Positions 45,356 to 48,816 of a stretch of 64,000 bases of DNA are shown in pieces; position 1 is the first letter of the stretch; every line of letters starts with the position of its first letter. Made by a program: the position numbers and the translations under genes. The stretch spans positions 1 through 64,000 of IMG/VR virus record IMGVR_UViG_3300020036_001974; one strand, 5' to 3'. The notes under the pieces are model-generated. The model was not told where the DNA came from. It worked only from the letters and a program-made list of their open reading frames with translations, and searched no databases. The DNA is from a virus. Taxonomy: Duplodnaviria > Caudoviricetes.

Positions 45356-45526
45356 TCATAGTAATTTTAAATAATTGGTAAAATTAATAGGTTTCAAGTC
45401 TTTTGTATAGCAGATATTTACATTCCCATCTGTAAACTTTATACGTGATACCAGACCTTCTTTACTCATTGCTTCAATATCACATACCCTACCCATACGG
45501 CTTAATACTCTATCGCCTATCTTCAT
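45356..45526 (-). CDS. Tagged microprotein (MKIGD type, not in track)
   Basis: MKIGDRVLS...KPINFTNYLKLL*, 56 aa. Confidence 0.75.
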   Translation of the reverse strand: MKIGDRVLSRMGRVCDIEAMSKEGLVSRIKFTDGNVNICYTKDLKPINFTNYLKLL

Positions 45527-45538
45527 AACTTCCTTAAA

Positions 45539-45961
45539 TCATGATAATATCCTGTCTAATCCAAAATAGATCCCTAAACACCATCCTAAGATGATAATCC
45601 TAATCCCGATAAGGGTTAGTTTGGAGAATTTCTTAAGTACCTTATCTGTTGAAGAACTCTCACCCAGATAGAACGGATCTCTTTTAAAGAAAGTTCCAAA
45701 GGTTATATCAAAGAACATTACAAATAGTCCAAAACAAGCTATCAGGCTCTGAAGTAAGTGAACCGGGAAGATGAATTCATTTGGGAAAATCATTACATTT
45801 ACAAGGCTCGCCAGAAGAAAAGCAGGAGCACGTAGTGTCCATATGTCCTTCTTGTGGTTGTCCCAGACCCCGTTCTTGGAGTCCTTTAGGTCCAAAACTG
45901 CTTCCAGTATCCAAGGGGTTGATAGTAGTAGGAGTTGTAGGGTTATCAGTAGTGTTTCCAT
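45539..45961 (-). CDS. Multi-pass membrane protein
   Basis: Several hydrophobic helices. Confidence 0.6.
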   Translation of the reverse strand: METLLITLQLLLLSTPWILEAVLDLKDSKNGVWDNHKKDIWTLRAPAFLLASLVNVMIFPNEFIFPVHLLQSLIACFGLFVMFFDITFGTFFKRDPFYLGESSSTDKVLKKFSKLTLIGIRIIILGWCLGIYFGLDRILS

Positions 45962-47842: not shown

Positions 47843-48529
47843 TTATTTATGTAAAATTGTTATGTTTCCTTTTTGAATATCCTTGAAAGTACAACTTTTA
47901 TTTGTCAGATGGTCGATGACCTCGTTGGCCTTTTGATTGTATGTCCTCCTCTTGTTTCCTCTGAAAGTATCACCAATCTGGTCTTTTCTGATCTTAGAAT
48001 AGGTATCGTCATAATTACTCTTGTGTTGTTCTTTAATCCTCTGTTTCATGATCTTATATGCCTGCTCTATGTTGGCCTCCTTTGATCTACCCTCAACCTT
48101 AACAGTAACATGTGCCTTTATGTGGGTCATCATGACTGAGCATTGTTTTCTGTTACGATGCTGACCACCGGCTCCTGTGCCACTGAAAAATCTGATAGTA
48201 ACATCTTCAGACTTAACATCCACTTGTATATCCTGTAAAGGATCAAGTACAGCTACGCTTACTGTGGAGGTTTGAGTTCGTCCTCTCTTTTCAGTAGGAG
48301 GAACCCTTTGCCATCTATGGCCGCCTATTTCATTAGCAAAGATTTTCTTGACGTCCATCCCTTGTATTCATAACTTAACAAAACCCGGACGGTTCTCCAT
48401 TGATTCTATAGTAATGTTATTCTTGTAACAGAATCTTGAGTAGACATCTGCCATGTCCTGACACAGGAGTTTTGCATCTTGTCCTCCCTCCATGTCTCTA
48501 ATTTCGATAATAATTGTTTCTTGCTTCAT
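47843..48529 (-). CDS. RF1-like peptide chain release factor lacking domain 1, with an in-frame TGA at codon 54
   Basis: IEIRDMEGG.DA.L, GGHRWQRVPPTEKRGR (PxT), GAGGQH (GGQ), RRTYN; TGA at 48368-48370 is in frame. Confidence 0.85.
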
Positions 48530-48816
48530 TTACGTTTCAGTTTAATCCTCTTTCTATCGTACCAATACTCTATATACGAATCATTAACGAAAATAGTTAC
48601 AAAAAGTTCATCTTTTTTTGCCAAGATGAGGGCTGCGTCTATTCTACCGGTATCCTTGTCTACCCGAACCTGCTCCAGATGGGTCACTGGTAAGGTAATG
48701 TACCCATATTCACGAACATAGAAGGATACACTATCGTTTTGAACTAATATCCTGCCAGATATATCATAGCTCCCGGAAGTGGTAACATACATGGTCCAGT
48801 ATATGATCCACTTCAT
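48526..48816 (-). CDS. Hypothetical protein
   Basis: ORF track; ATGA-coupled to the RF gene. Confidence 0.55.
   Translation of the reverse strand: MKWIIYWTMYVTTSGSYDISGRILVQNDSVSFYVREYGYITLPVTHLEQVRVDKDTGRIDAALILAKKDELFVTIFVNDSYIEYWYDRKRIKLKRK

Follow-up and report, generated by a model that had tools for sequence, protein, structure and literature searches.

A conserved in-frame UGA in a phage RF1-type release factor gene as a putative readthrough gate

The locus and its genome

The window analysed here comprises 64,000 nucleotides of a Caudoviricetes record in IMG/VR. On its minus strand lies a gene of 228 codons that is predicted to encode a class-I release factor of the RF1 type, as judged from its PPT and GGQ motifs and its RF1-like decoding residues. 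The sole interruption of this frame is a TGA at codon 54. The features of the locus, all on the minus strand, are listed below.

48526-48816, minus strand: upstream ORF of 96 codons, whose TGA overlaps the release factor ATG (48529-48527) as ATGA
47843-48529, minus strand: complete recoded release factor gene, 228 codons plus TAA (47843-47845), in one frame
48371-48529, minus strand: N-terminal segment ahead of the gate, codons 1-53, containing the conserved EGGxD
48473-48490, minus strand: EGGQDA, codons 14-19, an RF1-like GGxxE/D element before the stop (from alignment with Thermotoga RF1; invariant columns)
48368-48370, minus strand: in-frame TGA, codon 54, putative readthrough site in the context AAG TTA TGA ATA
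48293-48301, minus strand: PPT, codons 77-79, RF1-type PxT tripeptide (P78 and T79 invariant, P77 nearly so)
48266-48283, minus strand: GRTQTS, codons 83-88
48161-48169, minus strand: GGQ, codons 121-123, catalytic motif (G121, G122 and Q123 invariant)
47843-48358, minus strand: ORF of 171 codons from Met58, reported by code-11 gene callers; the portion behind the gate

An earlier note on this DNA had described an ATG at 48529 that is ATGA-coupled to the upstream gene and opens a single frame running through the TGA, and the sequence and coordinates are as it claimed. The ATGA overlap suggests translational coupling to the upstream ORF, for which PHROG and Pfam matches were absent. The 171-codon ORF is the part of the gene behind the gate and no gene in its own right.

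The genome was assembled as a single contig of 73,505 bp with 37% GC, which may be incomplete because no terminal repeat was found in it. It encodes a terminase, a portal, a DNA polymerase, a primase-helicase and an exonuclease. The portal is ~25% identical to portals of crAss-like, Flavobacterium and Bacteroides phages; read from this protein, the phage would be a distant crAss-like phage, and its host is likely a member of the Bacteroidota. The release factor gene is located together with replication genes in a minus-strand block (~22377-52618 in contig coordinates), and the plus-strand blocks span 357-22401 and 52983-71609.

Stop usage was counted in a crude ORF-based gene set of 133 ORFs, of which 67 end in TAA, 17 in TAG and 49 in TGA; ATGA overlaps account for 42 of the TGA stops. 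These counts bear out the earlier statement that the genome is not recoded as a whole. TGA ends 41 of the 83 ORFs of the minus strand, which carries the early genes and many small ORFs, mostly in ATGA overlaps; the structural ORFs of the plus strand end in TAA in 35 cases out of 50 and in TGA in eight. Genome-wide reassignment of TGA (code 4 or 25) was rejected: TGA serves as a real stop, tryptophan is encoded by TGG elsewhere in this gene family, and long genes are free of TGA, with ORFs of 1311 and 1719 codons open under code 11. ARAGORN and Rfam showed only a tRNA-Thr and no suppressor tRNA in the contig, and tRNA was the sole Rfam match. In the whole genome, only one other pair of ORFs is split by a same-frame TGA (45539-45961 and 45356-45526, minus strand), consisting of 141 codons, the TGA, a 12-nt gap and 57 codons; this pair has no Pfam or PHROG match and could be one gated gene or two.

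A release factor of domains 2-4

Conceptual translation through the TGA gives a protein with two Pfam domains that together span the stop, PCRF at residues 3-92 (PF03462, 65.5 bits, cut-off 24) and RF-1 at residues 100-207 (PF00472, 62 bits, cut-off 35), both above their gathering scores. The 53-residue N-terminal piece alone also matches PCRF (E 1e-6). Among the NCBIfam models, the best is that of RF1/prfA (NF001859, 165.5 bits against a cut-off of 400), which aligns over profile positions 103-332 of 347, and RF2 follows with 96 bits. None of the RF1, RF2 and PrfH models reaches its cut-off, as the protein lacks domain 1. As the prfA match is limited to positions 103-332, domain 1 is absent from the predicted protein, which consists of domains 2-4; the earlier note had reached the same view from aligning both halves by eye.

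A sequence search of the PDB returned RF1 chains as the best matches (E 1.7e-32). An AF2 model built from 44 family members reached a pLDDT of 91.2, and a Foldseek search with this model gave a TM score of 0.85 to RF1 in 70S complexes, with RF2 weaker. In the model, codon 54 falls within a beta-strand of domain 2 (residues 50-58).

Residues E9, E14, G15, G16, D18, L21 and G49, all ahead of the stop, are invariant in the 44-sequence alignment, which indicates that this segment is translated in frame with the rest and is needed for function. The EGGxD among them lies at the start of the helix that reads U1 of stop codons in RF1 structures. Because the N-terminal 53 residues hold invariant release factor motifs, the portion behind the stop is no complete factor. 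Further along, the protein contains QRVPPTE, and its GRTQTS retains the decoding threonine of GRxHTS. Where the window and its nearest subclade have GRTQTS, GR(I/V)HTS is found in RF1 and in the majority of the family. The glutamine in place of histidine beside the decoding threonine might alter stop-codon reading, and the codon specificity of this subclade is uncertain for that reason.

Conservation of the stop

The earlier note had named a sense codon in reads or homologues as the mark of a sequencing error or a recent pseudogene. Contigs of three public runs from two studies (wastewater and activated sludge) are identical across the TGA, one of these runs possibly being the source sample. 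The closest relative with DNA read, a contig from the metagenome scan (L169, 73% protein identity), has a TGA at the same column, and the codons around it read AAA CTG TGA CTG CAA GGC as against AAG TTA TGA ATA CAA GGG in the window. A stop at this column is also found at ~40-45% identity, and in a first set of 70 distinct relatives column 54 is TGA or TAG in 30. Both error and recent pseudogene are contradicted by the identical contigs and by this conservation, and the UGA is a conserved, selected feature of the gene.

A conserved start codon after the stop was not found in the relatives, and the RNA downstream of the UGA is no more structured than shuffled controls (z -0.34). Selenocysteine insertion was considered and rejected: a SECIS hairpin was not found, and the stop columns align with tryptophan or hydrophobic residues.

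A family with recoding signals at fixed positions

The family survey covered 177 distinct full-length loci (33-47% identity), plus L169, drawn from phage records, IMG/VR, species genomes and metagenomes; a second IMG/VR scan yielded no relative closer than 47%. An early recoding signal, within the first 70 codons, is present in 166 of the 177 (94%), a proportion that excludes chance. Sixty-three loci have one in-frame TGA and 37 have two; a +1 frameshift site at CTT TGA was found in 29 and at CTT TAG in 18, mixed or other forms make up 19, and the remaining 11 are uninterrupted. The genes range from 28 to 65% GC and are carried by bacterial chromosomes as well as by phages of 73 kb up to over 700 kb.

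The in-frame readthrough signal is TGA, rarely TAG, and UGA and UAG signals are combined within some genes. Across 76 contexts the stop is followed by A 44 times, by C 25 times, by G six times and by T once, while the background frequencies of codon first bases are.36,.18,.34 and.13, respectively. Of 26 leucine codons directly after the stop, 25 are CTN, even though the genes surveyed use TTA most often for leucine. Poole, Brown and Tate are said to have described A and C after UGA as weak termination contexts in E. coli in 1995. By this measure the stops of the family, that of the window included, lie in weak termination contexts.

In the first set of 70 genes, in-frame stops occur only at columns 39-41, 46, 50 and 54, and the tryptophans at columns 73, 114, 158 and 227 are always TGG. 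The stops are therefore tied to position and not to the genetic code. The commonest stop column (39-41) corresponds to the conserved tryptophan of RF1 in GW[KR]V, and column 54 is occupied by phenylalanine or methionine in solved RF1s. Tryptophan insertion is thus plausible at both sites, and tryptophan is the likely inserted residue.

Frameshift relatives and the history of the gate

Bacterial homologues were found in Myxococcota (Nannocystis, Minicystis), Planctomycetota and proteobacteria. At column ~39 they carry a canonical +1 frameshift cassette like that of prfB, GGAGG-N3-CTT TGA C or CTT TAG C (for example CGG AGG TCG CTT TGA C). In this bacterial cassette 32 loci use TGA as the stop and 12 use TAG, and even close bacterial relatives can differ in which of the two they have. 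These bacterial paralogues (L098-L168; for example L152 of Nannocystis exedens and L115 of Minicystis rosea) are of the PPT type and lack domain 1. AT-rich phage-like contigs have CTT TAG C at column 55, adjoining the stop column of the window, and two of the contigs with a frameshift site at column 55 also carry an in-frame TGA at column 41.

In a tree built solely from the sequence behind the gate, the window falls, with strong support, in a group of 34 rows that consists entirely of readthrough types. The gate must have switched at least 20 times on this tree, either between readthrough and +1 frameshift or between TGA and TAG, which indicates that the device has been maintained while its form changed.

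tRNA neighbourhoods and database proteins

Homologues are commonly located in phage tRNA arrays; the window gene has no such array close by, and its single stop is at column 54 instead of the tryptophan column. In 12 IMG/VR loci (L010-L012, L017, L020-L023, L025, L031, L037 and L065) a double-UGA release factor gene lies just 3' of two tRNA-Met genes, and a tRNA(CUA) of the amber suppressor type is found 1-2.5 kb downstream; some of these loci also have a tmRNA gene. A tRNA(UCA) was absent from the contig and from ~80 homologous loci. At another locus (L019:1502-1578), 1.4 kb upstream of a double-UGA gene, ARAGORN reported a tRNA-like gene whose anticodon has four bases (ccta), which may be a misprediction or a tRNA of the frameshift-suppressor type.

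Three public proteins (P0003, P0016 and P0019) are full length with tryptophan exactly at stop columns, at column 54 in P0003 and at columns 41 and 54 in P0016; P0003 is one of a series of closer relatives, P0003-P0015, with 66-84% identity. These residues probably represent TGA codons called under code 4 on short contigs, and such calls of family proteins are a possible origin of false 'recoded' calls.

The proposed gate and its alternatives

The earlier note had raised a readthrough switch as a possibility. With a stop that is conserved and selected, and with 166 of the 177 homologous loci interrupted, such a switch is the most economical reading of the sequences. We consider it probable that programmed UGA readthrough gates the RF1-type factor and ties its output to weak RF2 termination. 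Most ribosomes would stop at codon 54 through the host RF2 and release a useless 53-residue peptide, and a fraction would read the UGA, most likely by a near-cognate tRNA-Trp that inserts tryptophan, to give the 228-residue factor. When RF2 is scarce or overloaded, more factor would be made, and by reading UAA and UAG it would add termination capacity for these codons in the infected cell. Basal UGA readthrough in bacteria is typically 0.1-5%, and with no stimulatory RNA structure after the stop and no suppressor tRNA in the contig the efficiency may be basal only. In relatives with two UGAs, a trans-acting factor is suggested in at least some phages, because passing two such stops would leave hardly any product unless a suppressor is active. 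Support for the gate itself is good; the sensing role, the insertion of tryptophan, the response to the RF2 level and the gain for the phage are inferred.

Further proposals of the earlier note concerned the use of such a gate. That it could act as a sensor of termination capacity gains support, as regards the link to termination, from the prfB-type +1 cassette found at the same place in relatives, and the response to RF2 is the part that we infer. A role in ribosome rescue is without support: the stop-reading elements of RF1 are kept, and no partner gene is present in the one bacterial neighbourhood with family matches, that of L152 in Nannocystis, where the neighbours are ordinary chromosomal genes (a FemAB-like gene and a Clp ATPase). 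Near L115 in Minicystis, none of the three ORFs scanned matched a family and a partner gene was likewise not found. Modulation of the many UGA-coupled junctions of the genome is unlikely, as the reading elements are of the RF1 type (UAA/UAG).

Among the alternatives, the foremost is that the UGA acts as a fixed attenuator, holding a factor that would do harm in larger amounts at a constant and very low yield, with no sensing of RF2. Overexpression of release factors is toxic in B. subtilis, that of RF2 more than that of RF1 (PMC12421855), the many relatives with two stops would yield very little, and the window has no stimulatory RNA structure, all of which would suit such a device. Yet a weak start site would achieve the same more simply, whereas 94% of the loci keep a device that depends on a stop, the type of device switched at least 20 times on the tree, and the same frameshift cassette is a termination sensor in prfB; on balance we regard a fixed attenuator as unlikely. 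It is less probable still that efficient reading of the UGA has to await a dedicated tRNA or a change of decoding brought about by the phage, which would make the gene part of a timed code-change module. Jade phages do combine RF1 with a suppressor tRNA and TrpRS (bioRxiv 10.1101/2021.08.26.457843), homologues often sit in tRNA arrays with a tRNA(CUA) near 12 loci, and double-UGA genes would need efficient suppression. Against this, the tRNA that would read UGA is missing from the contig and the homologous loci searched, no other gene of the genome visibly requires TGA decoding, strong suppression would extend many proteins since TGA ends 37% of the ORFs, and the Jade phage RF1 gene is itself in the standard code.

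The two remaining alternatives are contradicted by the data. A functional 171-residue product from Met58, or two functional peptides made without readthrough, would fit the ATG that lies three codons past the TGA in the window and the C-terminal ORFs that gene callers output. However, relatives have no conserved start there, the break would fall inside the modelled strand of domain 2, invariant motifs precede the stop and are conserved in frame with what follows, and two-stop genes would have to be made in three pieces, so that a split or truncated product seems very improbable. Least credible of all is a sequencing error, a recent pseudogene or genome-wide sense reading of TGA. A lone in-frame stop would ordinarily point to a pseudogene, but here it is identical between contigs and kept at its column at both 73% and ~40-45% identity; sense reading is at odds with TGG at the other tryptophan codons and with TGA serving as a stop throughout the genome.

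Returning to programmed readthrough, a broader view can be put forward tentatively, and we hold it to be possible rather than probable. The short PPT-type factors of phages, Myxococcota, Planctomycetota and proteobacteria might form a back-up terminator that comes on when termination fails and is controlled by interchangeable devices, namely readthrough of UGA or UAG or a +1 frameshift at CUU-UGA or CUU-UAG, and in the phage the gate might link the early genes, many of which end in UGA, to the supply of an RF1-type factor for the late structural genes, which mostly end in UAA. The stop usage of the two strands fits a temporal model, itself speculative, in which heavy demand on RF2 early in infection opens the gate and so provides such a factor for late termination at UAA.

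Implications

Regulatory recoding of a release factor gene is textbook knowledge in the case of RF2, and giant viruses offer one demonstrated example. The RF1-type family described here is large and widespread, and nearly all of its genes are stop-gated; if the broader view is true, no regulatory recoding of a gene of the RF1 type would have been known before. Should the gate sense termination capacity, it would reveal cross-talk between the two bacterial termination pathways and a means by which phages control termination during infection. On the practical side, standard gene callers split or truncate such genes or resort to code 4, and phage release factors are under-counted as a result; miscalled genes of the family may also be misread as evidence of recoding.

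Comparison with known systems

Surveys of huge phages list RF1 and RF2 genes with internal stops unmentioned, and in the part of the literature that our search covered we found no stop-gated RF1-type gene in phages or bacteria. For prfA, no programmed frameshift is known (PMC12421855, a 2025 survey). Of the known systems, the gate most resembles prfB and the release factor gene of Mimivirus. In Mimivirus R726 and Megavirus mg280, internal stops are passed by readthrough and frameshift, as has been shown experimentally (Jeudy et al. 2012, PMC3521657). The resemblance to the window is close in that a virus-encoded class-I release factor gene is the only recoded gene in its genome. The Mimivirus factor, however, is of the eRF1 type (eukaryotic/archaeal) and belongs to a giant amoebal virus, whereas the window carries the gene of a predicted factor of the bacterial RF1 type, in a phage of 73.5 kb.

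Jade phages have an RF1 gene in the standard code and late genes with in-frame TGA (Borges et al., bioRxiv 10.1101/2021.08.26.457843). They share with the window a phage-encoded RF1 linked to UGA decoding, but the arrangement is reversed here, where TGA interrupts only the RF1-type gene and everything else in the genome follows the standard code.

PrfH (RF-H) is not known to carry a PxT-type reading motif. Like the window protein it is short, lacks domain 1 and retains GGQ, and RtcB is its partner (Baranov et al. 2006, PMC1586002; PDB 7sa4). Identity with PrfH was rejected: TIGR03072 scores 48 bits against a cut-off of 166.65 and an RtcB neighbour is absent. In the PDB comparison the similarity between the window protein and PrfH is confined to the GGQ domain.

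The coat/A1 pair of phage Q-beta is a known case in which low-level decoding of UGA as tryptophan by the normal tRNA yields a longer product. There, readthrough extends a functional protein at its C-terminus, whereas the product made before the stop in the window is proposed to be non-functional.

The frameshift site of prfB lies at codon 26, in domain 1, and the stop of the window gene in domain 2. In prfB the ribosome shifts by +1 with the help of CUU and an SD-like element; the window has UUA UGA A, is read in the zero frame and has neither element. The prfB loop is self-limiting, but that of the window would not be so in the same way, since an RF1-type factor is expected not to read UGA. 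Both are nevertheless class-I release factor genes in which ribosomes soon meet an in-frame stop with a weak context; termination efficiency sets the output of prfB and would set that of the window gene. The prfB cassette itself occurs in bacterial and some phage relatives at the stop region of the window.
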